29,801 bases of DNA, from positions 1 to 29,801 of the forward strand of contig CAZQDF010000001.1 of assembly GCA_964592065.1 (NCBI GenBank), in the 5' to 3' direction. Source of the DNA: an uncultured Dehalococcoidales bacterium. Its GTDB lineage: Bacteria; Chloroflexota; Dehalococcoidia; GIF9; AB-539-J10. Below the pieces are notes generated by a model that saw only the letters and a program-made list of their open reading frames with translations, did no database searches and was not told the DNA's origin. Every line of letters begins with the position of its first letter. Position 1 is the first letter of the stretch. The position numbers and the translations under genes were made by a program. This document shows, piece by piece, positions 16,140-29,801 of this stretch.

Positions 16140-16190
16140 TTTTGGTCGTCTCTTCTGTTTTCAAGCAATACCGGTTTAGCTATCAATTGA

Positions 16191-16233
16191 TGCCCGACTT
16201 CGACTATGCTAGCATAAACCTTGCCATCGGGCA
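16191..16233. repeat. Hairpin enclosing a degenerate repeat module upstream of alaS
   Basis: TGCCCGA (16191-16197) / TCGGGCA (16227-16233) stem around CTTCGACTATGCTAGCATAAACC, which resembles the CTTCG...GCTCAGGGTAAAC module. Confidence 0.35.
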
Positions 16234-16335
16234 AAGAGCTTTGCTGAACGCAATAATTTCGCCAGGGGTAGTATGGTTGATTGGCTTATGAGATGACGCC
16301 GACCCACTCGTGCGCTGCTACTAGGGTCACCTCTC

Positions 16336-17193
16336 TTACTTTCCCGGTGCATTACCGAAGTATACCTTGGTGTGAGGCCAGGGTATCTCTATGCCTTCAG
16401 CATCAAAGGCCCTTTTCAGGCGAAGTCTCAACTCACCCATCACCGCCCATTGCTCGATGGGTTTGACATCACCCAAGATCTTGACCTCTATCCCGGAGTC
16501 GCCCAGGTCATTCACCCTCAGTACCTGGGGCGCAGTTTTAATCACCTTGCGCCATTGCTCATCCGCAGCCAGCTCCTGGCCTACACGGTTTATTACACTT
16601 ATGGCGTGGTCAAGGTCGGTACCATAGGACACTGAGACATTAAGATTAACCCTGGCGAAGTGTCTGGTATAGTTGCTGGCTATCCTAATCTCGCCATTGG
16701 GGACATGGTGGACTATCCCGTCCAAGTCACGGAGCACCGTCTTCCTTAGATGAACCTCCTCTACCAGCCCAGTGACGTCGGCTATTCTGGCTACATCTCC
16801 AACCCTGTACTGGTTTTCTGCGATTATGAAGATGCCAGCAATAACATCCCTTATCAGGTACTGAGCGCCGAAGCCGATGGCTATTCCAGCAATGCCGAAA
16901 CCAGCCAGGATTGGGGCAACAGGGATATTTACTTCAGATAGGACCATCAGTATGACAACTATGGCGATAAATATCCGCCCTACCCCGGTCAAGACACCTA
17001 TAAGCGTCTCTCTCCTTTTCTTAATTCCCTCCTTGCTTTCGCCCCTGATTGTGACCATGGTACGGCCTATTAGGAGGGGGAGAAACTTTCTCAAAGCGAA
17101 CCATAGCACAATCCCCACCACCAATATGATGAGAATGCGAATGCCATGTTCAATCAGCCAGCTAACTACAGTGGCCCAACTCAATTGGAACAT
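16336..17193 (-). CDS. mscS: Small-conductance mechanosensitive channel family protein
   Basis: Three TM helices, AGFGIAGIAIGFGAQ, YRVGD, DGIVHHVPNG, AFDAEGIEIP. The ATG at 17193 has SD GGAGG. Confidence 0.93.
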   Translation of the reverse strand: MFQLSWATVVSWLIEHGIRILIILVVGIVLWFALRKFLPLLIGRTMVTIRGESKEGIKKRRETLIGVLTGVGRIFIAIVVILMVLSEVNIPVAPILAGFGIAGIAIGFGAQYLIRDVIAGIFIIAENQYRVGDVARIADVTGLVEEVHLRKTVLRDLDGIVHHVPNGEIRIASNYTRHFARVNLNVSVSYGTDLDHAISVINRVGQELAADEQWRKVIKTAPQVLRVNDLGDSGIEVKILGDVKPIEQWAVMGELRLRLKRAFDAEGIEIPWPHTKVYFGNAPGK

Positions 17194-17269
17194 ATGCAAC
17201 CTCCATGCTCCGCACTTTCTGCAGAGGCTAAACTGACATTATTTTAAACATTTATTCAGTGCGCTGTAT

Positions 17270-17397
17270 AGTCATCGGAGACGCTGGGGTAAACCTAGCT
17301 ATCAGTTTGCCCTGCCTCTCTTAAGCTTCTGCGAGGATACATTGACTCGGCGGGTACTCGACCATTTACATTTTCCAGCGTATACCCTTCCTTGGCT
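17270..17397 (+). ncRNA. Candidate structured RNA (long irregular hairpin with central bubble, 6S-like topology)
   Basis: Pairings ACGCTGG 17281-17287/CCAGCGT 17375-17381, GTAAA/TTTAC, GCCCTGCC/GGCGGGT, plus outer G-U-containing pairs that favour the plus strand. It lies in a ~350-nt spacer with no credible ORF. Confidence 0.3.
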
Positions 17398-17545
17398 TTA
17401 AGTGTGGCAGGAACTTGCACCTAAACACCCGTGTTAATGTTTTACTTGTATGGCCTTATACCAGGGTTTGCTTCGTTAAGACGCTTTTAAGAGTAGAATG
17501 GACGACTAGTGCCGAGAAATCTATGAGTAATGGGGCACGAGTATC

Positions 17546-18550
17546 CTAGGTCCGAGTCCGACAGCTGCTAAGCTCAGTTACGAGAAGCTCGACAGCTAGC
17601 TGGTCGTTATATTTACCAGTTTTGATAGCCAAGTCTGCTTCCAAGAGCTTGCCATACGCTTCTCTTACCTGCTCTAAGTTGTACAGTTTGGCTTGATTAA
17701 GTGTCTTATCGAGGCTGTAGTCTGCCAAGCCCAGCTTAGCTTGAACTTGCTGGCGGGACAGGTCACCTAGCTCTTTGCCTAGTGCTATTAAACGGAATTG
17801 CCTGGTAATCATAGTTATGATATAAGTTGGCGAAGCACCCGCCTGATACAGTTGATGCAATAACCTCGGGGCTGTCTTAGCCTGACCTTCAAGGATTGCA
17901 TCTACCAAGGGAAAGATGCTAGCTTCCTGAACATGGCTTACCAGTTGCCTAACATCGTCTTCATCGATAGTGCGTTCTTGGGTATAAAGAAGAAGCTTCT
18001 GGATTTCACTATTCAATGCCCATAAATTCCCCCCGATAAGTTCAGCTAGTAAATCAATGGCCTGGAAAGTGATACTGCCTTTTTCGTTGATTACTCGCTG
18101 TTGAATCCAAGTTTTCAGCCTCTTACCTCGCAGCAAAGGGAATGCCTCTACCTTAGCTATTGGGGAAAGATTCTTCAAGAGCGGATTATTCCCACTTATT
18201 TTGCCGTCAATTAGTACTAGCACGGTGGTTTCTGGTATTTGCTTGATATAAGAAGCCATTTCCTGCCACTTTCCTAGCTTGTTTGCAGATTTGGTATTGC
18301 TTTTGCTAAATCTTGATTTCCTTTGTCCTGACTCAAATCGTCCTAGCAAGCCTTTGACTGTAACCAAACGCTGTGACGATAAGAAGGGGACGATGTCACA
18401 GTTGCTCCTAAGCTCATTCAGGGTTAAATGCTCACCATCTAGCTTGATGGTGTTAACCGCTAGCATTTCTGAATTGCCTAAGTCAGTTTTAATTCTCTCT
18501 ATGGTTTGGTAAAGAGAGAAATCATCTTGGCCATGAAGAATATAGAGCAT
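17546..18550 (-). CDS. holA: DNA polymerase III delta subunit
   Basis: MLYILHGQDDF, PFLSSQRLVTVK, GGNLWALNSEIQKL, DLAIKTG. ATG at 18550 preferred over 18568. Confidence 0.93.
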   Translation of the reverse strand: MLYILHGQDDFSLYQTIERIKTDLGNSEMLAVNTIKLDGEHLTLNELRSNCDIVPFLSSQRLVTVKGLLGRFESGQRKSRFSKSNTKSANKLGKWQEMASYIKQIPETTVLVLIDGKISGNNPLLKNLSPIAKVEAFPLLRGKRLKTWIQQRVINEKGSITFQAIDLLAELIGGNLWALNSEIQKLLLYTQERTIDEDDVRQLVSHVQEASIFPLVDAILEGQAKTAPRLLHQLYQAGASPTYIITMITRQFRLIALGKELGDLSRQQVQAKLGLADYSLDKTLNQAKLYNLEQVREAYGKLLEADLAIKTGKYNDQLAVELLVTELSSCRTRT

Positions 18551-18558
18551 TTCTTGGT

Positions 18559-18567
18559 ATTGTACCA
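18559..18567 (-). promoter_or_regulatory. Extended -10 promoter 8 nt upstream of the holA ATG (possible leaderless mRNA)
   Basis: Minus strand TGGTACAAT-ACCAAGAA-ATG; no SD. Confidence 0.45.
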
Positions 18568-18627
18568 CAACACCATTTGGTAAGAGTCTTATCTAATTCA
18601 CAAGTTAAGGTCTTGGAAGTTACATGC

Positions 18628-18930
18628 TCACTTTGCACTTTTAGCTGTCCTGTGCCTTTTCCAGCCTAATATTGTCAGCAAATCTCCTACGACTGTATCC
18701 CTCGCTGTCTCATGCCTTAGAGGCAAATCGGGGTTAATACGATAGGTGTTGCTCCTGCCCACCTTTCTGCGCTTTAAGTAACCTGCGGCTTCCAGGTCCG
18801 AGATTGTTTTGTGGACGGTTCTCTCTGTAAGGCCCAGGGTCAAGGCAATGTCGCGAGTGGTGCTGCGCTGATGCCTGGAGATATGGCTCAGGACCATGCC
18901 ATGACTGGTAATAAAAGTCCACTCTCCCAT
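18628..18930 (-). CDS. Winged helix-turn-helix transcriptional regulator (MarR/AsnC-like, WTF.T.H type)
   Basis: WTFITSHGMVL...TRDIALTLGLTERTVHKTISDLEAAGYLKRRKVGRSNTYRIN; SD GAGGAG. Confidence 0.88.
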   Translation of the reverse strand: MGEWTFITSHGMVLSHISRHQRSTTRDIALTLGLTERTVHKTISDLEAAGYLKRRKVGRSNTYRINPDLPLRHETARDTVVGDLLTILGWKRHRTAKSAK

Positions 18931-18987
18931 TTTATTCAGTTCTCCTCAAAAAAAATGAAATTTTATCTTAAAACCTCGTAAAACCAC

Positions 18988-19015
18988 TTGACAAAATTGA
19001 TGGTAGCAGTATAAT
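18988..19015 (+). promoter_or_regulatory. Consensus sigma70 promoter
   Basis: TTGACA (18988-18993)-N16-TATAAT (19010-19015). Confidence 0.7.
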
Positions 19016-19251
19016 TATTCTAGAAAACTAATTCATAATTATTATCTCACATTATATATTGCAGTAATTATAATAACAATAGCATAGCAAATTATTGAAT
19101 ATTGGTAAAGTGCTTAAACGTAAACGTTATTTCAGCTATATCACTCAAACCTCTTGTGATTACTTAGCAAACAGTCACAGGAGAAAATTGTTTAAGGTTG
19201 CAAACATGGATACTTGCCAAATCGAGTCCTGTAAAAAAGGAGGTGAGAAGC

Positions 19252-19302
19252 ATGCAGAAGAAACCTAGTGCTCCTAAGCCAGGTGCCCCTAGGCCCAAGT
19301 AG
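19252..19302 (+). CDS. 16-aa Pro/Lys-rich peptide MQKKPSAPKPGAPRPK
   Basis: SD AAGGAGGTGA at 19237-19246, ATG at 19252, TAG at 19300-19302; flanked by a promoter and a terminator. Confidence 0.6.
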   Translation: MQKKPSAPKPGAPRPK

Positions 19303-19321
19303 TTGAGTTATAAGGGTAGGT

Positions 19322-19368
19322 AAAGCGAAGGGGAGTTTCCCCGTAAGGGGTGGCTCCCCTTCGCTTTT
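19322..19368 (+). terminator. Intrinsic (probably bidirectional) terminator
   Basis: Perfect 14-bp stem AAAGCGAAGGGGAG/CTCCCCTTCGCTTT, inner CCCC-GTAA-GGGG hairpin, followed by T run. Confidence 0.8.
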
Positions 19369-19579
19369 GGCTTCGGAGGCAAGGCACAGAGTTTATCACG
19401 TAAGCGAGCTTAGTAACTAAGTCAAGATGGAGATAGCAAATTTTTATTTGAAGAACATCAGCCCTGCACTTCATGTTACCCGTGGTATAAAACCTTATAA
19501 TTTGGAGGAGGGAGCCACCTCGCTATTGAGTCCCTGGGGCCTAACGAGCCAGATGGCCACGAAGTGCAAAACCAAATTA

Positions 19580-19588
19580 TGCTATAGT
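19580..19588 (+). promoter_or_regulatory. Extended -10 promoter 7 nt upstream of the ychF ATG (possible leaderless mRNA)
   Basis: TGCTATAGT-TATATCC-ATG; no SD. Confidence 0.5.
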
Positions 19589-19595
19589 TATATCC

Positions 19596-20684
19596 ATGAA
19601 GATTGCCATTATTGGACTGCCCAAGAGTGGTAAAACAACCGTCTTTAATGCCTTAACCAGAGGCAGGGCTGAGGTCGCTGCTTATGCCTCGTCTTTAGCC
19701 CCAAATGTAGGCGTGGCCAAGGTATCTGATTCTCGATTGGTAGCACTAGAGAACATATTCCATCCTAAAAAGGTTGTTCCTGCGGAAGTAAGCTATGTAG
19801 ATATTGCAGGGTCAGTTAAGGCTTTTTTTAAAGAGGGTATAGGAGGGGAATTCCTGAGCTATCTAACTGCTGCTGATGCTTTGCTTCAAGTAGTCCGGAC
19901 CTTTCAAGATGAAAACCTTCCCCATCCTGAAGGAAGTATAGATCCTAAACGGGATATAGCTACTTTGGACTTAGAGCTTACCTTCTCCGATTTAAATATT
20001 ATTGAGAGAAGACTTGACAGGCTGGAGGTAAGCTTAAAAGCTGCTAAAGCAGCGGAGCGTGGACAGTATTTGAAGGAACAAATACTGTTGCAGAAGATTA
20101 AAACAGAATTGGAAAAAGATATACCGATAAGGCAGCAAGAGCTCAGTAAGGATGAACTCGGGGCATTGTCTAATTACCAGTTTCTTACGGCTAAACCTGT
20201 ACTAGTTGTGCTTAATATCGGAGAAGAACTATTACCACAGGCTTCACAATTGGGAGATGAGATAAGCTCCCTCTATCCTCGATTTGCTGTTGTAGCTCTT
20301 TGTGGAAAGCTCGAGATGGAGTTAGCTCAGTTTAGCGATGCTGAGGCCAAGGAATTCCGTGAATCTATGGGGCTAACTGAGCCAATGCTCGACCAGGTTA
20401 TTGGCCTTTCTTATCATCTTTTGGGGCTAATTTCATTTTTCACCACAGCCTCCGCTGAATTGAAAGCATGGACTATCCCCAGCGGTATGATGGCACCGGG
20501 GGCGGCGGGGAAGGTCCATTCTGATATGGAAAAAGGATTTATCCGAGCTGAGACGATCAGCTATGCTGATTTGGAGAGCTGTGGGAATTTATGCGAGGCA
20601 CGGAAAAAAGGCCTGCTTAGAACAGAAGGCAGGAATTATGTCATCCAGGATGGAGATATAATTACCTTTCTATTTCACGTTTGA
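19596..20684 (+). CDS. ychF: Ribosome-binding ATPase YchF
   Basis: IIGLPKSGKTT, DIAG, FLTAKP, AAGKVHSDMEKGFIRAE, EGRNYVIQDGDII.F.F. Confidence 0.96.
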   Translation: MKIAIIGLPKSGKTTVFNALTRGRAEVAAYASSLAPNVGVAKVSDSRLVALENIFHPKKVVPAEVSYVDIAGSVKAFFKEGIGGEFLSYLTAADALLQVVRTFQDENLPHPEGSIDPKRDIATLDLELTFSDLNIIERRLDRLEVSLKAAKAAERGQYLKEQILLQKIKTELEKDIPIRQQELSKDELGALSNYQFLTAKPVLVVLNIGEELLPQASQLGDEISSLYPRFAVVALCGKLEMELAQFSDAEAKEFRESMGLTEPMLDQVIGLSYHLLGLISFFTTASAELKAWTIPSGMMAPGAAGKVHSDMEKGFIRAETISYADLESCGNLCEARKKGLLRTEGRNYVIQDGDIITFLFHV

Positions 20685-20778
20685 ATTAAGCACTCCAAGC
20701 TCATTGCTTTAAGCTGTGGTCTTACTTAGCCTGCCTTACTCCAAGAAAGCTTTTGGTATGGCCCTGCAACCCCATTCT

Positions 20779-23292
20779 CTAGTGTTTGATCTTCAAGGTC
20801 ACTATCTCAAAGGGTTTCACTTTCATTGTTAGCCTATTGCGATTTGGCTTCAGCTCATATTCCTCTCGCTCCAGCAAATCGGAAACTGTTGCCCTTTCGA
20901 TATTACGGAATAGCTCGATTTCAGCCGTGGTTTCCTCTCCTTTAGTTTCAAAGAACCTTAATATTACCTCATCGCTGCCCTCAGCCTTCTTAAGGGCTGA
21001 CAGGATAAGGTTATTCGGTGAAATCTTGAGGAAGGAAAATTCTGGGGGCAAATTGCCTTTAGAATTAGTTTGAGTGCAAAGAGGTTGGTGGTGATATTCT
21101 TGGCCATGCTTATATGCTTCAGATTGCCTCCAATCACCCTCATGATGCTGCAAGGCATATTCAAAAGTGTAATCTCTATTGAGCTCCAAAGCATCTGGAG
21201 TTGGGATTAGAGGCCCAGCGTCCCCATCGGTAGAAAGAGCACCAACACTCCGCAAAAGTGTTAAGTAAACCTGACTACCCCTTATCTCAGTTGCCGGGAT
21301 ACCCTTGTTCATAAAAGTTATTCCTCTCGTTCCATCGCCATAACAGAACCAGGATAGAAAATTGGGAATTCCGGCTGGTGTCCCCGTCCTTTCCAAGGAT
21401 GCAAATAACTCTGTAGGCTCAGGAACAACACCAAATTGGGTCTCACGAAAATAAACCATTCTCTCCTTAAATGTATCGAATTTAACCCTAAGCCTTATAT
21501 TTGGATATCTACTATTGACTTTGGTTGTAAACTCGACCCTGGGAAGGTCCCGATAAATAGTAACCTCTTTTATAACATCTAAAACCCTGTGTTTATAAAA
21601 CTTAGTTTCAAACTTCTCGAACATTCGATAAGGCCATCTGAGACAATAATATCCCTCTTTTAGGATTATTTTCGATTTTAGCGGACCATTTTCTACCTTG
21701 AAGCTATCGGGCTTAAAAGTTCCATAATAAATCCCCTCTCCACTCTCATTTTTTATCAGTTCAAAGAACATGTGCCGATGATAATACAAGTCGCCAACCT
21801 CGTTCTCAATATTCAGTTCATTCCCTTTAACTAAAAGCTTTCCTTTTTTATCGAAAACTTCAATTATTCCTGTTTCAGGGTCAGTTTTTAATTTAAAGAA
21901 GGGATTTTCTAGCGCATTTTCCTTGCTCTTGACAGCCCTTTCAGGTTCTTTACTTCGTTCGATGACCTTATAAATCTTATAGCCTATCGGTGGAAGGTCA
22001 ACAAAAAAGCCAAGCCTTGCATGATTGATTTTCCCCTCTCTATCCTTTTTCAGCCCTAAAACTTGATTTTCTACCTCCTCCGCACTATATCTGAGCCCAG
22101 GTTCCTTCTCCCAGCCTTCAAGCTCCAAACCAACCTCACACCAGTTGTGCATTCCCCAGGGGAGAGGGTTGAAAATTACAACTGCTTTGCCTTGAGTATC
22201 TATTTTGCTGGCAATGAATTTCAGCGAATCATTCAGAATTTTAGAAAGATGCTCTTCAAGGAAGGAAAATATTTCTCTAACCTCGTCATAAATTTCATCT
22301 ATCCCGCATCCGGTGATGATATCGTGGAAGGCAACGAAAAGCATCTTCTCCCAGCACTCATTTAGCTCGGTACTGGGATATTCCTTACCTAATAGCCAGG
22401 CCAGAGTAGCAAACCGCTCAACTGTACTGAGCAATGCTTCACATTTCCTCGCTCCAAGGACCACCCACATTCGGCTTGAGCATACCTGAGGGAAAACTTC
22501 GACCAAATCCTTGTCATACAATTCACCCTCGTGGGGTTTAAATTTCCCCTCTTCGCTCTCCACAGCTTGGAAGAATTTGGATGGAGTGGAGAGCTTCATC
22601 TGGGAACCACCTCGATGATTCTCATTCCATTTCATTACCGCTTCAATAACTTCCTCTTGAGGAGGCACTGATCCACTTCCTGAAGGCATGAGAATGTGGA
22701 AAGTAGTGGCATATTTGTTAAGCGCTATATAGCTTTCCTGTAACCTATCGAGGTAGAATCCAGCCCTGTACCCTAATGGCATCCAATGGGCAAGGATAGT
22801 AGTCCCATCAAGCCCCCTCCAAATAAATTCGCTCTGCATCTCCTTCGCTCCTCGCCTAAAAGCAACCCATTTGTACCCCGATTTCTTATAAATTTGAGGG
22901 AGCTGCGCATTCATGCCAAAGCTATCGGCACACCAAGCTACAGGGACATCTACCCCAAACTTCTCCTTACAGTACTTCTTGCCAAACAAGATCTCCCTTA
23001 CCAACACCTCCCCAGTGGGAAGCATGGTATCTGGCATCAAATACTGGCCATCAACTATTTCAAGTTTTCCCTTCTGGATCATTTCCTTTATTTCTGACCA
23101 AAGCTTAGGATTCCTTTCCTCCAACACTTTCAAGGGGAAGATTTGCTCCCAGGAGAATCTATATTCCTCGTACTTTCTCATCAATTCAACGGCCTGTTGT
23201 AGAATACCTTGGTTTATTTCAAGATAATCCTCTTTGGTGAATGCCCAAGCTACATCATAATGAGAATGAGGAACAAGGTATATCGTCTGCAT
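20779..23292 (-). CDS. GH38 alpha-mannosidase-like protein, apparently lacking the canonical acid/base Asp
   Basis: Zn ligands PHSHYDVAW and FHDIITG; nucleophile motif WCADSFG; C-terminal LSALKKAE...LRFFE. ATG at 23292, 1 nt after the mpgP stop, with SD GGAGGT. Confidence 0.9.
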   Translation of the reverse strand: MQTIYLVPHSHYDVAWAFTKEDYLEINQGILQQAVELMRKYEEYRFSWEQIFPLKVLEERNPKLWSEIKEMIQKGKLEIVDGQYLMPDTMLPTGEVLVREILFGKKYCKEKFGVDVPVAWCADSFGMNAQLPQIYKKSGYKWVAFRRGAKEMQSEFIWRGLDGTTILAHWMPLGYRAGFYLDRLQESYIALNKYATTFHILMPSGSGSVPPQEEVIEAVMKWNENHRGGSQMKLSTPSKFFQAVESEEGKFKPHEGELYDKDLVEVFPQVCSSRMWVVLGARKCEALLSTVERFATLAWLLGKEYPSTELNECWEKMLFVAFHDIITGCGIDEIYDEVREIFSFLEEHLSKILNDSLKFIASKIDTQGKAVVIFNPLPWGMHNWCEVGLELEGWEKEPGLRYSAEEVENQVLGLKKDREGKINHARLGFFVDLPPIGYKIYKVIERSKEPERAVKSKENALENPFFKLKTDPETGIIEVFDKKGKLLVKGNELNIENEVGDLYYHRHMFFELIKNESGEGIYYGTFKPDSFKVENGPLKSKIILKEGYYCLRWPYRMFEKFETKFYKHRVLDVIKEVTIYRDLPRVEFTTKVNSRYPNIRLRVKFDTFKERMVYFRETQFGVVPEPTELFASLERTGTPAGIPNFLSWFCYGDGTRGITFMNKGIPATEIRGSQVYLTLLRSVGALSTDGDAGPLIPTPDALELNRDYTFEYALQHHEGDWRQSEAYKHGQEYHHQPLCTQTNSKGNLPPEFSFLKISPNNLILSALKKAEGSDEVILRFFETKGEETTAEIELFRNIERATVSDLLEREEYELKPNRNRLTMKVKPFEIVTLKIKH

Positions 23293-23293
23293 C

Positions 23294-24100
23294 TTAACCT
23301 CCAAATATTTCTTCGATTACTCTGCTCCAGCCTTCAGGGCCAATCCCCTGAACTTTGCGCAAGTGAGGCAGATTTATGTTCTCCCAAGTGTGATTCCTTT
23401 TTTGCACTAAGATAGGTATATCCACTGCGGAAAGCAGAGGTAAATCGTTTAAGCTGTCGCCAAGTCCAATAGTCTCTATTTTATCCCACATCCTATGGTA
23501 TAGATTGCTTACAATGGCTACAGCTTTACCTTTATCGTTATCTCCCATGATGTCATAAAACCGCCCACCATGGGTCCAATTGAGGCCAGCATCTTTAACC
23601 TTTTCCAAGGCCTTGCTCACCTCTTCACCTGAGAGGTCGAGCTTTACTGTTTCATCATATTCTCTTTGCTTAGCTAATTTAGCAGACTCCATATCCAAGC
23701 CAGTCTCTCTGGCTATCTCTTCAACACTCATATCGCCAAAGCCTCTAAAGTGAAAATTGCCTTCCTTTTTAACCTTATCCAGCAATTTTCTGATCTCCTC
23801 ATAAGGAGTGCCCAGCTCAATAACTAATAGATTACCTATAGTAACTTTATGATACTCGAAAGGGAAGGAAAAGTAACCTTGTGGTATAAAGATAGCGCCT
23901 CCATTCTCCACTATAAAGGGATGAAACACTTTCATTTTGTGCCGATATAACTCTTGCTCTGCTCTGGTCTTTGCCGAGCAGAATATCAGGGGTATGCCAT
24001 TCTGCTGAAGTCGTTTAATCCCAATAAGCGATTTCTCATAGGAATAAGTTACGCTGTCAAGAAGAGTGCCATCTAAGTCAGTAAATACTATTTGTTTCAT
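23294..24100 (-). CDS. mpgP: Mannosyl-3-phosphoglycerate phosphatase (HAD IIB)
   Basis: FTDLDGTLLD, CSAKT, PFIVENG, AKQREYDE, GGRFY, DKGKA, GLGDSLND. Confidence 0.9.
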   Translation of the reverse strand: MKQIVFTDLDGTLLDSVTYSYEKSLIGIKRLQQNGIPLIFCSAKTRAEQELYRHKMKVFHPFIVENGGAIFIPQGYFSFPFEYHKVTIGNLLVIELGTPYEEIRKLLDKVKKEGNFHFRGFGDMSVEEIARETGLDMESAKLAKQREYDETVKLDLSGEEVSKALEKVKDAGLNWTHGGRFYDIMGDNDKGKAVAIVSNLYHRMWDKIETIGLGDSLNDLPLLSAVDIPILVQKRNHTWENINLPHLRKVQGIGPEGWSRVIEEIFGG

Positions 24101-24285
24101 TGCAACTAAAGAGGATATGGGTGGATTATTCCTTTATTCCCCAGCAAATTTTCTTTTTCCAGTTTGACGAACTTTATCTTGCGTCACTCATATGTGTCAA
24201 ACTTCCTTGGACTTTGACAATTACGGCAGTAAGGACAGTTTGCCGCTGGCAAACAGATTTGATATTATCCTTTTGAGATAAGAAG

Positions 24286-25473
24286 ATGTTTATTGAGAGT
24301 CCGAGGTATACAGAGAGGTTTGGTTCAGTCAGAATGAATCACGTGCAGAAGGTGGTGGCTTTAGACTCAGGGGTAAAAAGCGAGTTGCCTTCCCATGGTG
24401 CCATGGGGATAATAAAAATAGATGAGGAGACGATCAAGCATTTTGAGGACAGAATGGCGATTGTCATCCCAGTCAAAGAAGAGAAGCTCAAGCTCTTTGA
24501 AGGAGTGGTTAGTGGCGTGCCACATGACTGCCTGGTAATAGTTGTTTCGAATAGCCAAATAGAAAAGGTTGACAGATTCAGGATGGAAGGTGATGCTCTA
24601 GCCCAGCTTTGTCGCTTTACCTCTCGCCAGGCTTTGATCGCTCATCAAAAGGATCCGGCTATTGCCGAAGCAGCAATGGAAGCTGGCTATAATGACCTAT
24701 TGGGTGAAGATGGGCTAGTGCGTAATGGTAAGAGCGAAGCTATGGTAATAGGATTGCTTATGGCCAAGGCGTCAGGAAAAGAGTATGTTGGTTTCATTGA
24801 CGCTGATAATTATTTCCCTGGTGCGGTGCTGGAGTATGTGAGGAATTATGCTACTGGTTTTAGCCTAGCTCAATCTCCTTATAGCATGGTAAGAATATTA
24901 TGGCATTATAAGCCCAAGATCTCAGGGGGGGTGTACTTTAAGAAATGGGGAAGGGTATCAGAGATTACCAATAAATACTTGAATAATCTGATATCTTCTA
25001 AAACAGGGTTTGAAACTGATGTGGTTAAAACGGGCAACGCTGGTGAGCATGCTATGAGTATGAAGCTGGCAGAAATTGTACCTTATGCTTCGGGATACGC
25101 TGTGGAACCTCAAGAGTTAGTATCTATATTTGAAAGTTTTGGTGGCATTTTGCCCTCCAGAGAGCATAAGGTGATGGAGCAAGGCGTAGATATATTCCAA
25201 ATTGAGACCAGAAATCCTCATCTACACGAAGAAAAGGGAGAGGAGCACCTTGATGAGATGTTGTTATCTGCAATGAGCACCATTTACCACTCATCTCTTT
25301 GCGATGAAGAATTAAAACAGGCAACTCTGACTGAATTAGTTAATCGAGGAATTCTCAAAGAGGGTGAGGAGCCCCCACCTATTCATATTAATGCTCCGCT
25401 AAAAGAAGTCGATACTAAGAAGTTTATGAGCGCTATACACGACGACTTCGATAGATACCAAGTGTTACATTAA
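24286..25473 (+). CDS. mpgS: Mannosyl-3-phosphoglycerate synthase (GT55)
   Basis: ERFGSVR...QKVVALDSG, AIVIPVK.E, GKSEAM, GFIDADNYFPG, WGRVSE, NAGEHAM, ETRNPHLHE. Confidence 0.93.
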   Translation: MFIESPRYTERFGSVRMNHVQKVVALDSGVKSELPSHGAMGIIKIDEETIKHFEDRMAIVIPVKEEKLKLFEGVVSGVPHDCLVIVVSNSQIEKVDRFRMEGDALAQLCRFTSRQALIAHQKDPAIAEAAMEAGYNDLLGEDGLVRNGKSEAMVIGLLMAKASGKEYVGFIDADNYFPGAVLEYVRNYATGFSLAQSPYSMVRILWHYKPKISGGVYFKKWGRVSEITNKYLNNLISSKTGFETDVVKTGNAGEHAMSMKLAEIVPYASGYAVEPQELVSIFESFGGILPSREHKVMEQGVDIFQIETRNPHLHEEKGEEHLDEMLLSAMSTIYHSSLCDEELKQATLTELVNRGILKEGEEPPPIHINAPLKEVDTKKFMSAIHDDFDRYQVLH

Positions 25474-25575
25474 ACCCAGTGGCCTGTCACGGATTTTTCC
25501 ATAGCAGATTCCACTGAATGACGGGGGTGCTAAGTAAAAGCTTGGAATGTAGAAAATAGAGGATTTTGGGCGCTT

Positions 25576-27756
25576 CTAAGCTTCCGCCATTTCTTTCAGC
25601 AGAAGGTTCACCTCGCTTTGGGAACCAAGATTGAATTTGGCTGCCGAGGCACTGAATCCGACCTTAATTGACCATGCCGTGGTGGGCAGGACTTTGAAAA
25701 TATCCTCATCGGTCCAATCATCACCTATTGCTAATATGAAGTCCCAACCATCTCTCGAAATCCATGGCAAGGCTGCTCGCCCCTTATTTATGCCAGCATT
25801 TTTTACTTCAACTACCTTACTTCCCTCCAGGACCTGAAGGTTGAGATTACCAGTAAGGTTTAGAAGATCATTTACTAGCTCTCTTGCTCGTAGTTCACCT
25901 AGCCGTGGGTCAGCTTTCCTATAATGCCAAGCAAGAGAAAAATCTTTCTCTTCAATGAAGGAGCCTGGAGTCCTATCCACGTATAGCGCACAGATTGGGC
26001 GCATTTCCTCCTTCCAGTCGCTCTTCAACGCTTCTAACATCTCCCACTCCTTGCCTCTTTCCTTAATCCAGGCACCATGTTCAGCTACCAATGCCATATT
26101 TAGATTGCCAAACCATTTCCCTAGAGCATCTTTGTCGCGTCCACTTATGAGCACCACCTCATTTCTAGTGTCCTCAGCGAGCCCTTTAAGCAATTCCAGA
26201 AGCTCGCTGGTTGGTATTGCTTTCTTTGGCTTTTCTGAAAATGGAATAAGCGTGCCATCATAATCCAAGAACAGTAGTCTCTGCTCACCCTTTTGGAAAT
26301 CGCTCATTAACTTCTTTTTCGCCTCATGGTTTAATGTTTTTGTTTCCATCTCTTCCTGAACTTCTCTGGCGCAAAGTAATTTATTCACAAACTCGTCTGC
26401 CCATCGCTTTACATTATAATGCTCAAGGCGTTCCTGCATTATCCTAATACGCCCTACCTGCTCTTCTTCTGGCATAGTTAAAGCTTGTTCTAACGCCTGG
26501 ACAATTTCCTCTTCGTTATTTACATTTATTGTGACTGCCTCTCCTAGTTCCTTCGCTGCCCCAGCTGTCTCACTAAGCACTAAAACCCCTTTGCCTTCTG
26601 TCTTAGTTGCTATGTATTCTTTAGCTATAAGGTTCATTCCATCTCTAATGGGGGTAACCAAGGCAACGTCTGCCATGCTATACATAGCAACAAGAGAATG
26701 AGAAGGTAAAGAGCGATATGAGTACCAAATGGGTGTCCAGCCAATGGATCCATACCTTCCATTGATTGCCCCTACAAGTTCATCTATCTGTTTTTTCAGC
26801 AGAGCATACTGGCCCACTCTTGTACGAGAAGGAACTACGGTTAATATTAGAACTACTTTCCCTCTATACCGTGGCTTTCTTTCCAGAAAGAGGTTAAAAG
26901 CTTCCAATCGCTGAGGAATACCTTTAGTATAATCGAGGCGGTCTATTGACAGGATTATCTTACAGTCTCCCAGTCTCTTGCGAAATTTGCTTATCTGTGT
27001 CCGCACTTTTCGACTCTGTGCGGTGCTAGAGAATTGCTCATAATCTATCCCCATGGGGAATTCATCCGACTTAATTACGCGACTAGCGGTGGTGATTTGC
27101 CCCATAACCGCCTCATAGCCCAACAAGCGATGCACACTGTCAAGAAAGTGCCGTGTATAATCATAGGTATGAAAGCCTACTAGGTCTGCTCCTAAGAGTC
27201 CATCCAAAATTTCCTTACGCCATGGGAGCAAGCGGAATATTTCAAAAGATGGGAAGGGAATATGAAGAAAAAAACCTACTGCTGCCTTTGGTAGCCTCTC
27301 CCTTACAAGCTTTGGGAGTAGCATTAAGTGGTAATCGTGTATCCAAATGATATCACTCTCTTCTGCTACTTCAATAACGGCATCAGAAAAAACTTGGTTA
27401 ACCCGCTCATAGGTTTGCCATAAATCTTTGTTATACACTGCATACTGGGTGAAATAATGAAAAAGGGGCCAGATAGTTTTATTGCAAAATCCATGGTAGT
27501 AGTCTTCAACATCGTGTTCCGAAAAAAAAACAGGGTAGCAACTTTCCGACAGTAATCTTGCTTCTATATCCTTTTCCTCTCCCGCTATCTTTTCCTGAGC
27601 AATTCCAGGCCATCCTATCCAGATGCTGTCACGTGATTTATAGAACGCCCCCAGGCCAGTCGCTAGACCTCCAACGCTAGGGTCAAATTGTAATTTCTTT
27701 TTTCTTTTCTGAATACTAATAGGCAACCGATTTGAAACGATTAGCAATCGAGGCAT
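25576..27756 (-). CDS. otsAB: Bifunctional trehalose-6-phosphate synthase/phosphatase (GT20 + HAD)
   Basis: VSNRLP, HDYHLM, GFFLHIPFP, DRLDYTKG, DGMNLIAKEY; phosphatase FLDYDGTL and AIGDDWTDED. Confidence 0.95.
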   Translation of the reverse strand: MPRLLIVSNRLPISIQKRKKKLQFDPSVGGLATGLGAFYKSRDSIWIGWPGIAQEKIAGEEKDIEARLLSESCYPVFFSEHDVEDYYHGFCNKTIWPLFHYFTQYAVYNKDLWQTYERVNQVFSDAVIEVAEESDIIWIHDYHLMLLPKLVRERLPKAAVGFFLHIPFPSFEIFRLLPWRKEILDGLLGADLVGFHTYDYTRHFLDSVHRLLGYEAVMGQITTASRVIKSDEFPMGIDYEQFSSTAQSRKVRTQISKFRKRLGDCKIILSIDRLDYTKGIPQRLEAFNLFLERKPRYRGKVVLILTVVPSRTRVGQYALLKKQIDELVGAINGRYGSIGWTPIWYSYRSLPSHSLVAMYSMADVALVTPIRDGMNLIAKEYIATKTEGKGVLVLSETAGAAKELGEAVTINVNNEEEIVQALEQALTMPEEEQVGRIRIMQERLEHYNVKRWADEFVNKLLCAREVQEEMETKTLNHEAKKKLMSDFQKGEQRLLFLDYDGTLIPFSEKPKKAIPTSELLELLKGLAEDTRNEVVLISGRDKDALGKWFGNLNMALVAEHGAWIKERGKEWEMLEALKSDWKEEMRPICALYVDRTPGSFIEEKDFSLAWHYRKADPRLGELRARELVNDLLNLTGNLNLQVLEGSKVVEVKNAGINKGRAALPWISRDGWDFILAIGDDWTDEDIFKVLPTTAWSIKVGFSASAAKFNLGSQSEVNLLLKEMAEA

Positions 27757-27899
27757 GATGTTTTATACTCCTTAAATAAGATACCTCATTTAGCCAATTG
27801 TACTGCATACTTGTATTTCACTCAACTTAAAAAGCTTGTCCAGCTATACTCAATGCCCTTACTCGTCAGCTCCCAACAGTTGACGACCTCGCGCTTTGA

Positions 27900-27928
27900 T
27901 TGAGTTCGTTGGCCTCGAGTGCTATAAT
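27900..27928 (+). promoter_or_regulatory. sigma70-type promoter upstream of pgi/pmi
   Basis: TTGAGT-N17-TATAAT with extended -10 TG at 27920-27921. Confidence 0.55.
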
Positions 27929-28044
27929 GCTTGCAAGCAAGTTTTCTCATTTGCTTTTAAATAGATGGTTCACTTCGTTTTTCCCATTACAGAGGGTGCC
28001 TTCTGCATCTATCCGAAGTTGATAGATTTGCCCAAGGGGGAAAG

Positions 28045-29157
28045 TTGGTAGCACGTGGAAGGAAGAGGTCGGGGTTAGCAATAGTTGACCTAGACAATCT
28101 TCAAATTTACAGGCAGCTTGATACATCAGGGATGCTTAACCATCTGCACAAGTTCCCTGAGCAATGCAAGCGAGCCTGGGAAAAGGTTTTGAAGTTTGAT
28201 CTACCCAGAGAATATGCTCAAATAGATAAGGTTATTATCTTGGGAATGGGTGGCTCTGCTATTGGTGGAGAGATGGTACGCCGCCTTGCTTTGGCTGAAA
28301 GCGAAGCGCCTGTCTGGGTGCATCGAGATTATGGCTTGCCTCCATTTGTTGATGAGGACACTTTGGTTATCGCCTCAAGTTACTCTGGAAACACTGAGGA
28401 AACCCTTTACGCCTTCACGGAATCACTCAAAACCCCGGCTAAAAAGCTTGTTCTCACTACAGGCGGTAAGCTTAAGCATCTGGCTGAGAAAGAAGGCATC
28501 CCTATTTTTGCTATAGATTACCAAGCTCCTCCAAGAGCGGCTTTCTCTCATAGTTTCATCCCCTTGGTCGGCATTTTTCAAAAACTTAGTTTGCTCAGAG
28601 ACAAATCAGAGAACTTGCAAGAAGCATTACAGGTATTGAACAAGCTATCCGGGGAGCTCGTTGAAACCTCCCTTCTAGTTTCTAATTCGGCAAAGCAATT
28701 AGCTACTAAACTGTGGGGGCATGTAGCAATAATTTATGGGGCAGAGATACTCTCAGAGGTAGCTCAACGCTGGAAGGGCCAGCTTAACGAGACTGGCAAG
28801 ACATGGGCTTTCTTTGAACTTTTCCCTGAACTCAACCACAATGCAGTGGTAGGTTATGAATTTCCCTCCGAGGCAAAGGAAAGAATTTTTGTGGTTTTGT
28901 TGCGTTCCCGCTTGTTTCATCCCCGAAACCTGATTCGCTATGAGGCTACAGCTAAGCTACTGGCCAAAGCAGGAGTCACTTATGAATTCGTGGAAGCCTC
29001 AGGAGAAAGCGCCCTAGCCCAGGTGATAAGCCTAGTTTTTTGGGGAGATTATCTCAGCTTCTATCTAGCGATATTAAATAGGATTGACCCTACGCCGGTA
29101 GATTCTATAAACTTTGTTAAGGAATACCTTGCTCAGTTTATGGCTGTAAGTGGTTAA
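28045..29157 (+). CDS. Bifunctional phosphoglucose/phosphomannose isomerase (SIS fold); start uncertain, may be ~12 codons downstream
   Basis: GMGGSAIGG, SSYSGNTEET, PPRAA, WKGQLNE, PELNHN. Confidence 0.9.
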   Translation: MVARGRKRSGLAIVDLDNLQIYRQLDTSGMLNHLHKFPEQCKRAWEKVLKFDLPREYAQIDKVIILGMGGSAIGGEMVRRLALAESEAPVWVHRDYGLPPFVDEDTLVIASSYSGNTEETLYAFTESLKTPAKKLVLTTGGKLKHLAEKEGIPIFAIDYQAPPRAAFSHSFIPLVGIFQKLSLLRDKSENLQEALQVLNKLSGELVETSLLVSNSAKQLATKLWGHVAIIYGAEILSEVAQRWKGQLNETGKTWAFFELFPELNHNAVVGYEFPSEAKERIFVVLLRSRLFHPRNLIRYEATAKLLAKAGVTYEFVEASGESALAQVISLVFWGDYLSFYLAILNRIDPTPVDSINFVKEYLAQFMAVSG

Positions 29158-29248
29158 ACCCAAGCAAAATACTGGAGTCGGCTTCGCAAACTAGAGAGGT
29201 TGAACCACGAATAGGCCGTATCATGTGAAAGGTATGGCAGGACTGCTA

Positions 29249-29801
29249 ATGAAAGCATTGATCTTGTGTGGTGGCAAGGGAACAAGGCTCAGGCCTCTCA
29301 CACATACTACGGCAAAGCACCTCTTGCCTGTTGCTAACAAGCCAATCCTATTTTACATTTTGGAGTATATTAGAGCGGCTGACATTACCCATATCGGCAT
29401 CGTCATCTCTCCGGAGACAGGTAACCAGATAAAAGAAGCTGTGGGTGATGGTTCAAAATGGGGTGCTCAAGTCACCTATATTGTCCAATTAGAGCCGCTT
29501 GGTCTAGCCCATGCTGTAAAGGAGGCCCAGGGTTTCCTCAGCGATTCCCGTTTCCTCATGCTCCTAGGCGATAACCTTATTGAGGGTGGTGTCACGGAAT
29601 TTATCGGCCAGTTTAACACTTACGCCCCAGATGCTCTTATCCTTCTCAAAGAAGTGCCCGATCCTGAAGCTTTCGGGATAGCTGAGCTTAGCGAAAGGGG
29701 CGAAGTGATTCGTGTGGCCGAGAAACCCAAAGAGCCAAAAAGCAATCTTGCTCTAGCGGGGATATATCTTTTCACTCCTGAAATTCATAAGGCGATAGCC
29801 C
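29249..29801 (+). CDS. Sugar-1-phosphate nucleotidyltransferase (glucose-1-P thymidylyltransferase-like), 3' truncated; not in the ORF track
   Basis: [34 protein letters not shown]...PLGLAHA...LGDNL...[16 protein letters not shown], open to the window end. An in-frame alternative ATG is at 29234. Confidence 0.9.

Follow-up and report, generated by a model that had tools for sequence, protein, structure and literature searches.

A GH38 clade without the canonical acid/base residue accompanies mannosylglycerate genes beside a trehalose module in a Dehalococcoidales contig

Main

The 29,801-nucleotide contig CAZQDF010000001.1 of an uncultured Dehalococcoidales bacterium (the window) carries two juxtaposed modules, one for mannosylglycerate (MG) and one for trehalose and hexose phosphates, and not one integrated operon. 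The window is a complete 29.8-kb contig of a metagenome-assembled genome (MAG) of 1.74 Mb (307 contigs, 84% complete). Its MG module comprises the genes for mannosyl-3-phosphoglycerate synthase (mpgS), mannosyl-3-phosphoglycerate phosphatase (mpgP) and a divergent glycoside hydrolase family 38 protein, here termed GH38*, that lacks the general acid/base Asp of its family. Judged from its active-site residues and gene partners, GH38* most likely cleaves MG and releases glycerate, for draw-down or recycling of the pool. To the two-module reading that includes this cleavage, we assign a probability of about 0.6.

An altered leaving-group site in GH38*

GH38* matches four GH38 Pfam domains above their cut-offs (PF01074, PF09261, PF07748 and PF17677; E = 9e-61 for the N-terminal domain), which reproduce the architecture of the family: an N-terminal catalytic domain, a middle helical domain and C-terminal beta domains. 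The protein was aligned with other Dehalococcoidia GH38 sequences and with Escherichia coli MngB, and with SpGH38 (2WYH) and 3LVT through HMMER alignments; residue numbers count from TTG 23304 unless stated otherwise. The −1 site of SpGH38 is formed by H13, D15, W18, D125, F127, R149, Y192, H351 and D352 (PMC2815779). The equivalents in GH38*, H15, D17, W20, D127, F129, R151, Y179, H327 and D328, are all conserved. They include the zinc ligands and the Asp nucleophile (H15, D17, D127 and H327, corresponding to H13, D15, D125 and H351 of SpGH38), which are retained throughout the clade and in the outgroups. Because this site is unchanged, GH38* is predicted to bind an alpha-mannoside.

On the leaving-group side, the general acid/base Asp (D232 of SpGH38, D341 of dGMII) is replaced by Gly211 (Gly207 when counted from the ATG). 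This residue lies within an invariant motif, P-[S/C/A]-G-S-G, and is Gly in ~110/110 clade sequences, none of which has an acidic residue at the position. The Asp is present in MngB ('NGHDQ'), SpGH38 ('NGCDH'), 3LVT and seven other Dehalococcoidia GH38 proteins. Two arginines are also specific to the clade: R150, which is Trp in other GH38 proteins and lies next to the nucleophile-polarising R151, and R180, which lies next to Y179. An exhaustive search of 1.84 billion proteins (50%-identity cluster representatives) returned 13,258 matches at E ≤ 0.001. Among the best 150 representatives, which were examined, Gly211, R150 and R180 co-vary perfectly and define ~14 clusters, and the closest Asp-bearing relatives are 33–38% identical. 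Further clade-specific invariant residues are H173, H509, E502, E520, Y559, K579 and E707, and in bacteria and archaea alike, 150 positions of GH38* reach at least 95% conservation. By this alignment, one negative charge has gone from the leaving-group side and two positive ones have been added, a change that would suit an anionic partner, for example the carboxylate of glycerate and/or phosphate.

The sequence-only reading of this DNA had the locus recycle one osmolyte, a role that an ordinary MngB-like hydrolase would fill. Against the MngB equivalog NF007331 (cut-off 1138), GH38* scores only 297.9 bits, and its identity to E. coli MngB is 24%. Moreover, a FastTree phylogeny separates the GH38* clade from canonical GH38 proteins, MngB included, with 100% local support. 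With the acid/base Asp also gone, GH38* was rejected as an MngB orthologue and that description had to be given up. Within the GH38* tree, Dehalococcoidia sequences are split between subclades and intermingled with those of other phyla, a pattern suggestive of horizontal transfer; the MG module appears to be ancient and widely transferred.

The translation start of GH38* is most likely ATG 23292. A GGAGG stands 5 nt before this codon, and the TAA stop codon of mpgP ends 1 nt before it. The spacing of the GGAGG, the position of the TAA and the resulting length of 837 aa, as in homologues, favour this start, and the arrangement of mpgP and GH38* is one of classical translational coupling. Because the protein begins right at the catalytic motif, it is predicted to be cytoplasmic and without a signal peptide.

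Several variants of the gene were encountered. In a divergent paralogue subclade (L061 = G142:C3; P0126), the acid/base position reads 'CGIG' and neither of the clade-specific arginines is present (F-G-R-G and Y-H-V-G). Two GH38* genes, G030:C86:2437-4962 and G021:C40:28718-31228, have one in-frame stop each (TGA and TAA, respectively) and may be pseudogenes or contain sequencing errors. In the congener G002 (L041:8139-8384), a deletion between ychF and mpgP has left just the final 82 codons of GH38*, 94% identical; mpgP, mpgS and the trehalose gene described below are intact. GH38* has thus been lost naturally in one member of the genus. An AlphaFold2 model of GH38* from a 10-sequence alignment was discarded, as the mean pLDDT of its catalytic domain was 66 and values fell below 50 at residues 84–183 and 209–214.

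GH38* accompanies mannosylglycerate genes

Co-occurrence of GH38* with mpgS was counted in 401 Dehalococcoidia genomes. Members of the GH38* class score above 500 bits at an identity of at least 37%, and the remaining GH38 matches score below 285 bits at an identity of at most 31%, a sharply bimodal distribution. mpgS is found in 38/401 genomes and GH38* in 27/401, and 26 of these 27 also have mpgS; the one without it is a MAG of 86% completeness, and its congeners do carry mpgS. Because the genomes are related, the counts are descriptive and do not amount to a statistical test. The tallies of GH38* and of GH63 (see below) include one unpublished genome (G291), on which the claims do not depend. 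Among 23 mpgS loci of relatives, nine have GH38* within 10 kb, in several gene orders and often with the mpgP stop codon overlapped.

A search of named genomes with the GH38* alignment found at least 593 relatives, and neighbourhoods were read in the best 79 loci, many of which are ended by contig edges. These loci span more than ten bacterial and archaeal phyla. The archaea are ANME-1/Methanophagales (anaerobic methanotrophs), Methanosarcinales, Syntrophoarchaeum, Archaeoglobaceae, and Aenigm- and Woesearchaeota; the bacteria are Chloroflexota, members of the candidate phyla radiation (CPR; Nealson- and Saccharibacteria), Ignavibacteriota, Latescibacterota, Krumholzibacteriota, Fidelibacterota and a deltaproteobacterium. 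Of the 79 loci, 35 have mpgS or mpgP no more than 10 kb from GH38*, typically in the order mpgS→mpgP→GH38*. mpgP adjoins GH38* directly in 24 (on the same strand in 18) and mpgS in 3. A gene for glycerate 2-kinase (DUF4147+MOFRL) is present in 12 loci and directly adjoins GH38* in 10, and some MG-related neighbour (mpgP/mpgS, glycerate 2-kinase or C-N hydrolase) occurs in 47. The tie between GH38 and MG that the earlier reading had drawn is thus upheld, by phylogenetic co-occurrence and by adjacency conserved across phyla.

In five of five small CPR/DPANN genomes (0.6–1.3 Mb; L107, L108, L109, L123 and L141), the mpgP–GH38* pair occurs and a search for mpgS (PF09488) throughout each genome found none. 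At L123, a gene for a cupin of the phosphomannose isomerase (PMI) type lies directly downstream of the pair, and at L141 a GT2/MGS_GT-like glycosyltransferase gene lies upstream. In G336, a complete genome of genus g109, a fused mpgS/P is directly followed by GH38* (1035672-1040349), as it also is in G347 and at L147; we take g109 to be Dehalogenimonas and a second genus, g81, to be Dehalococcoides.

Other genes recur in these neighbourhoods. A gene for an AsnB-like glutamine amidotransferase adjoins mpgS in many phyla, and a C-N hydrolase (nitrilase-like) gene often abuts GH38*; loci with one or other of these arrangements are L029, L030, L031, L036, L045-L047 and L049, and L097, L102, L111, L112, L121, L138 and L162. 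The two proteins may serve to form and to degrade mannosylglyceramide. In the genome of the window, the AsnB-like gene is fragmented (L164:3959-5397, contig C82), lying in three frames with ~50 residues missing. At L111, L121, L138 and L162, a sodium:solute symporter (SSF) gene stands between mpgS and mpgP, and its product may be a transporter of MG or glycerate.

Proposed role of GH38*

In the scheme that we propose, MpgS is predicted to form mannosyl-3-phosphoglycerate from GDP-mannose and 3-phosphoglycerate, and MpgP to dephosphorylate it to MG. GH38* would hold the alpha-mannosyl group of MG in the unchanged −1 site, with its zinc and Asp nucleophile, next to a leaving-group site made more positive by Gly in place of the acid/base Asp and by two extra Arg. 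It would then split the mannosyl–glycerate bond and release glycerate, by which the MG pool would be drawn down or recycled. The default would be hydrolysis, with proton transfer provided by the substrate or by a relocated acid/base, for which H173, H509, E502, E520, E707 and Y559 are candidates; the main alternative would be phosphorolysis to mannose-1-phosphate. The mannose would re-enter metabolism through a ROK kinase, phosphomannomutase (PMM) and the isomerase encoded in the window. Because a ROK glucokinase-like gene and PMM are present in five of five genomes tested, the products of hydrolysis and of phosphorolysis would both be salvageable.

Four observations lead us to read GH38* as an MG-cleaving enzyme: the unchanged −1 site, the charge shift, the partners mpgP, mpgS and glycerate 2-kinase, and the lack of a detectable GH63 MG hydrolase. 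The profile of the latter (PF22422) had no match in the genome of the window (G000) or in G003, G008, G336 and G381 (two of the four relatives at least 98% complete), and a Thermus control was matched. GH63 is common elsewhere in the class Dehalococcoidia, and a strong match occurs in 2 of the 12 mpgS-positive genomes without GH38*, a weak complementarity only.

Several points weigh against this role. Those 12 mpgS-positive Dehalococcoidia genomes do without GH38*, and no glycerate kinase was found in the 84%-complete genome of the window. When a retaining glycosidase has lost its acid/base, it should be poor at hydrolysing the glycoside of an unactivated alcohol, and E. coli MngB, which acts on the same aglycone, keeps the Asp. 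The mpgP–GH38* pairs without mpgS in CPR/DPANN genomes are not readily explained by a purely catabolic role. Finally, if mpgP is transcribed together with the gene of an enzyme that degrades MG, a futile cycle follows unless a post-translational switch controls activity. In Synechocystis, the glucosylglycerol hydrolase GghA is encoded beside ggpS, and the salt dependence of enzyme activity avoids such a cycle. GghA acts on a different solute, belongs to a different enzyme family and has canonical catalytic residues; by analogy, it offers a model for how co-expression of mpgP and GH38* could be tolerated.

Two juxtaposed modules in the window

The coordinates that the sequence-only reading had given for the genes of GH38*, MpgP, MpgS, the fused trehalose-6-phosphate synthase/phosphatase (TPSP) and the phosphoglucose/phosphomannose isomerase (PGI/PMI) match exactly (Table 1). 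The four genes other than GH38* are above NCBIfam cut-offs, and GH38* is assigned by Pfam. MpgS scores 542.4 bits against TIGR02460 (cut-off 351.2; model positions 3–382 of 383; PF09488, E = 7e-154), and MpgP 274.3 bits against TIGR02461 (cut-off 244.35) and 254.5 against the subfamily model TIGR01486 (164.75). TPSP matches NF011071 over its full length (1045.6 bits; cut-off 634), with PF00982 at residues 3–460 and PF02358 at residues 496–699. PGI/PMI scores 244.5 bits against TIGR02128 (cut-off 213.9) and 362.6 against NF006426 (295), and is matched by PF10432. For the truncated nucleotidyltransferase, the best NCBIfam match is rmlA_long (glucose-1-phosphate type; 250.8 bits), with 117.8 bits for mannose-1-phosphate guanylyltransferase.

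Table 1. Features of the window discussed in the text
Feature	Coordinates	Strand	Remarks
mscS	16336-17199	-	3.58 kb from 20779
GH38*	20779-23292	-	837 aa from ATG 23292; start in the list of open reading frames (ORFs), TTG 23304 (20779-23304)
mpgP, mannosyl-3-phosphoglycerate phosphatase (HAD-IIB)	23294-24100	-	TIGR02461
Divergent mpgP/mpgS promoter region	24101-24285		Promoter-like sites
mpgS, mannosyl-3-phosphoglycerate synthase (GT55)	24286-25473	+	TIGR02460, PF09488
TPSP, fused trehalose-6-phosphate synthase/phosphatase (OtsA-OtsB)	25576-27756	-	NF011071
Divergent TPSP/PGI-PMI promoter region	27757-28044		Promoter-like sites
PGI/PMI-family sugar-phosphate isomerase	28045-29157	+	PF10432, TIGR02128, NF006426
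Sugar-1-phosphate nucleotidyltransferase, 5′ part	29225-29800	+	PF00483; continues beyond contig end

The genes alternate between strands, (GH38*←mpgP) (mpgS→) (←TPSP) (PGI/PMI→NTP-transferase→), and form at least four transcription units; upstream genes in the window are ychF, a small winged-helix gene, holA, mscS and alaS. An independent assembly of a congener (L035/L085) has the identical gene order, with 94–97% protein identity, which rules out misassembly as the source of the arrangement.

Promoter-like sites are present in both divergent spacers. Between mpgP and mpgS they lie at 24200-24171 (−) and 24240-24268 (+), and the −35 and extended −10 elements of the mpgS promoter are kept in nine relatives. 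Between TPSP and PGI/PMI they lie at 27825-27797 (−) and 27900-27928 (+), the latter with a TG-extended TATAAT. A shared operator was sought between the two spacers, and they have no 8-mer in common; as far as sequence features go, none argues for a regulator common to both. Four GTTTG[AC]C half-sites lie at 24164-24254, including a perfect palindrome, GTTTGCC-GCT-GGCAAAC (24238-24254), that overlaps the −35 of the mpgS promoter. Most of these half-sites are kept only in a 95%-identical relative, which makes a regulatory role of the array doubtful, and the palindrome is not conserved past the closest relative. A search of 16000-29801 against Rfam gave no match at E ≤ 0.1, and a tRNA search found none.

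The second half of the locus reads as a trehalose/hexose-phosphate module that lies beside the MG module in one lineage. TPSP is predicted to make trehalose, and the PGI/PMI→nucleotidyltransferase pair (glucose-1-phosphate type) would supply hexose phosphates and NDP-glucose, PGI/PMI also yielding mannose-6-phosphate for the MG module. Next to mpgS, orthologues of TPSP (at least 72% identity) occur only in G002, G003 and G004, which represent the genus of the window and one sister genus; three other relatives have GT20 paralogues, 33–37% identical, near mpgS. Among the 79 GH38* loci, a TPSP-like gene occurs in two and PGI/PMI in one. The survey of GT55 neighbourhoods that the sequence-only reading had called for sustains the GH38 partnership in the 9 of 23 mpgS loci noted above, and fails to extend it to TPSP, of which adjacent orthologues are confined to two genera. 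A paralogue resembling mannose-1-phosphate guanylyltransferase adjoins mpgS in relatives, and the genome of the window has an intact copy on contig C82, beside the fragmented AsnB-like gene.

Single PGI/PMI homologues, 39–48% identical, are present in complete genomes of g81 (39%) and g109; in the g109 genome G336, the homologue adjoins a PMM/phosphoglucomutase (PGM) gene (G336:C1:215200-217677). The homologue in D. mccartyi showed PMI activity only (PMC4720418). Classical PGI (PF00342) was not found in the genome of the window or in G001, G003 and G008, three of four relatives. Because no classical PGI was found, the PGI/PMI of the window probably has to supply both glucose-6-phosphate for trehalose and mannose-6-phosphate for MG, and from this distribution of genes it probably has PGI activity besides PMI activity.

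Placing mscS about 3.6 kb from the cluster was correct, but the mechanosensitive channel gene does not hold up as a release part of the solute system. As in the window, it lies close to holA in G005, G006 and G011, three of five family members without mpgS, where 70–80 bp separate the two genes. Because the holA–mscS adjacency is kept in relatives that lack mpgS, we consider mscS a bystander held in place by housekeeping synteny. The sequence of the window was found in salt-marsh, marine-sediment, subsurface and cold-seep metagenomes from 17 studies, and one of the salt-marsh metagenomes is its probable source; the presence in salt-marsh, marine-sediment and cold-seep samples agrees with the saline habitat that had been foreseen, and a thermal one is not indicated.

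Alternative explanations

The missing acid/base and the mpgP–GH38* pairs without mpgS in CPR/DPANN favour a phosphorylase or biosynthetic role. As a tentative possibility, GH38* might be the first GH38 phosphorylase, a retaining enzyme that would interconvert MG (or mannosyl-3-phosphoglycerate) and phosphate with mannose-1-phosphate and glycerate (or 3-phosphoglycerate). If true, this would permit energy-saving recycling and, together with MpgP, a GDP-mannose-independent synthesis of MG, which would explain the pairs without mpgS.

An outright biosynthetic role, in which such a mannoside phosphorylase runs in reverse, is unlikely. Mannose would be transferred from mannose-1-phosphate to 3-phosphoglycerate or glycerate, with MpgP pulling the reaction towards MG and GH38* complementing or replacing MpgS. 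The exchange of a carboxylate acid/base for two arginines is what would be expected of an anion (phosphate) site, and the link of GH38* is tighter to mpgP than to mpgS, with 24 versus 3 immediate adjacencies, with translational coupling to mpgP in the window, and with the mpgP–GH38* pair in all five CPR/DPANN genomes without mpgS. Those five genomes, however, carry no completeness estimate. In Dehalococcoidia, the occurrence of MpgS in 26 of 27 GH38* genomes is a co-occurring and not a complementary distribution, and glycerate 2-kinase and C-N hydrolase as recurrent direct neighbours point to the release of free glycerate and to catabolism. A GH38 phosphorylase would also be without precedent; to our knowledge, none is known in the family. 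The near-perfect co-occurrence with mpgS in Dehalococcoidia and the glycerate kinase and amidase neighbours favour the catabolic role of GH38*.

The sequence-only reading had joined all of these genes into one osmolyte locus that makes MG and trehalose, recycles MG and releases solute through the nearby MscS; in the form weighed here, the genes would be co-regulated and the recycling enzyme an MngB-like hydrolase. The genes are indeed contiguous and in the same order in the congener, 6 of the 23 mpgS loci of relatives have a TPSP-like gene no more than 10 kb away, and the habitat is saline. However, the alternating strands with at least four transcription units, the lack of any motif common to the divergent regions and the persistence of holA–mscS without mpgS speak against integration, as does the restricted lineage of the arrangement: orthologous TPSP is adjacent in two genera and PGI/PMI in one. 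Because GH38* also falls under the MngB cut-off and lacks the acid/base Asp, we regard a single integrated locus as improbable.

Still less credible is a general cytosolic alpha-mannosidase, acting for example on free mannosides or glycans, that came to lie near MG genes through shared mannose metabolism. Such an enzyme would be expected to have the GH38 fold and intact −1 mannose site that are seen here, and ~40% of the GH38* loci have no MG-related neighbour in the available sequence. Many of these neighbour-less loci, however, end at contig edges, and mpgS is present in 26 of 27 GH38* genomes compared with 38 of 401 overall. The glycerate-specific partners mpgP and glycerate 2-kinase adjoin GH38* across domains, and the acid/base required for ordinary mannosides is missing. 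Finally, GH38* could be a pseudo-enzyme that has lost catalysis and, by binding MG, senses or regulates the pathway. This would account for the invariant loss of the general acid/base, but is very improbable: in bacteria and archaea alike, conservation of at least 95% at the zinc ligands, the nucleophile and 150 positions looks like active-site selection, and the Pfam profiles reveal no DNA-binding or signalling domain in GH38*.

Discussion

Much of this locus is familiar. The two-step MpgS/MpgP pathway has been described in Pyrococcus horikoshii, Thermus thermophilus and Rhodothermus marinus, and a fused form, MgsD, in Dehalococcoides mccartyi (Empadinhas et al. 2004, according to the citing passages in PMC4918011 and PMC4720418). 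MG synthesis in Dehalococcoides and Dehalogenimonas has been published (PMC4918011, PMC13390484), and genes for MG and trehalose synthases have been reported from a marine Dehalococcoidia single-cell amplified genome (SAG DEH-J10, as cited in PMC4959059). The part of the locus made up of mpgS, mpgP, TPSP and PGI/PMI is thus ordinary and already known for marine Dehalococcoidia; TPSP has nothing unusual for the fused OtsA/OtsB form, only its position beside mpgS being lineage-specific. Taken together, known osmolyte genes have been placed side by side here in an ordinary, lineage-specific arrangement. The mpgS and mpgP of the window pass the equivalog cut-offs of the described pathway, but are separate and divergent genes, and GH38* is a third conserved partner that lies outside it. 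Fused mpgS/mpgP genes, encoding 690–712 aa, occur in g81 and g109 and also in the congener G001 (L049); the cases noted include L050 (G030), G113, G136, G154 and others. Because it is only 53% identical, the fused gene of the congener appears to be a separate acquisition.

The characterised MG hydrolases are GH63 enzymes (PMC6608630) and the phosphotransferase system (PTS)-linked MngB. MngB (EC 3.2.1.170; mngR-mngA-mngB), which acts on 2-O-(6-phospho-alpha-mannosyl)-D-glycerate, has in common with GH38* the family, the cytoplasmic location and the expected mannosyl-glycerate type of substrate. However, the motifs NGHDQ, W-R-G and Y-A-I-G of MngB are GSG, R-R-G and Y-R-A-G in GH38*. In addition, MngB works with the PTS importer MngA and the GntR repressor MngR, and serves the use of external MG, whereas GH38* would turn over MG that the cell has made itself; the ORFs of the window, to which the search for PTS genes was confined, include neither a PTS nor a GntR gene. 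The GH63 MG/glucosylglycerate hydrolases are known from Thermus thermophilus (MgH), Rubrobacter radiotolerans, Selaginella and Mycolicibacterium hassiacum (GgH) (PMC6608630, PMC5381378). Their proposed role is the one that we suggest for GH38*, the intracellular breakdown of a self-made sugar-glycerate solute that is no longer needed, but they are inverting enzymes with an (alpha/alpha)6 barrel, a fold unrelated to that of GH38*. Our literature search found no paper that links the GH38* clade to mannosylglycerate.

MG is a widespread stress protectant, and a GH38 subfamily of ~14 clusters accompanies its genes in Dehalococcoidia, ANME archaea, CPR/DPANN and several other phyla. GH38* is therefore a concrete, cloneable candidate for the missing MG-removing enzyme of anaerobes. 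It also offers a way to examine how retaining glycosidases may work, or switch reaction type, without their acid/base.

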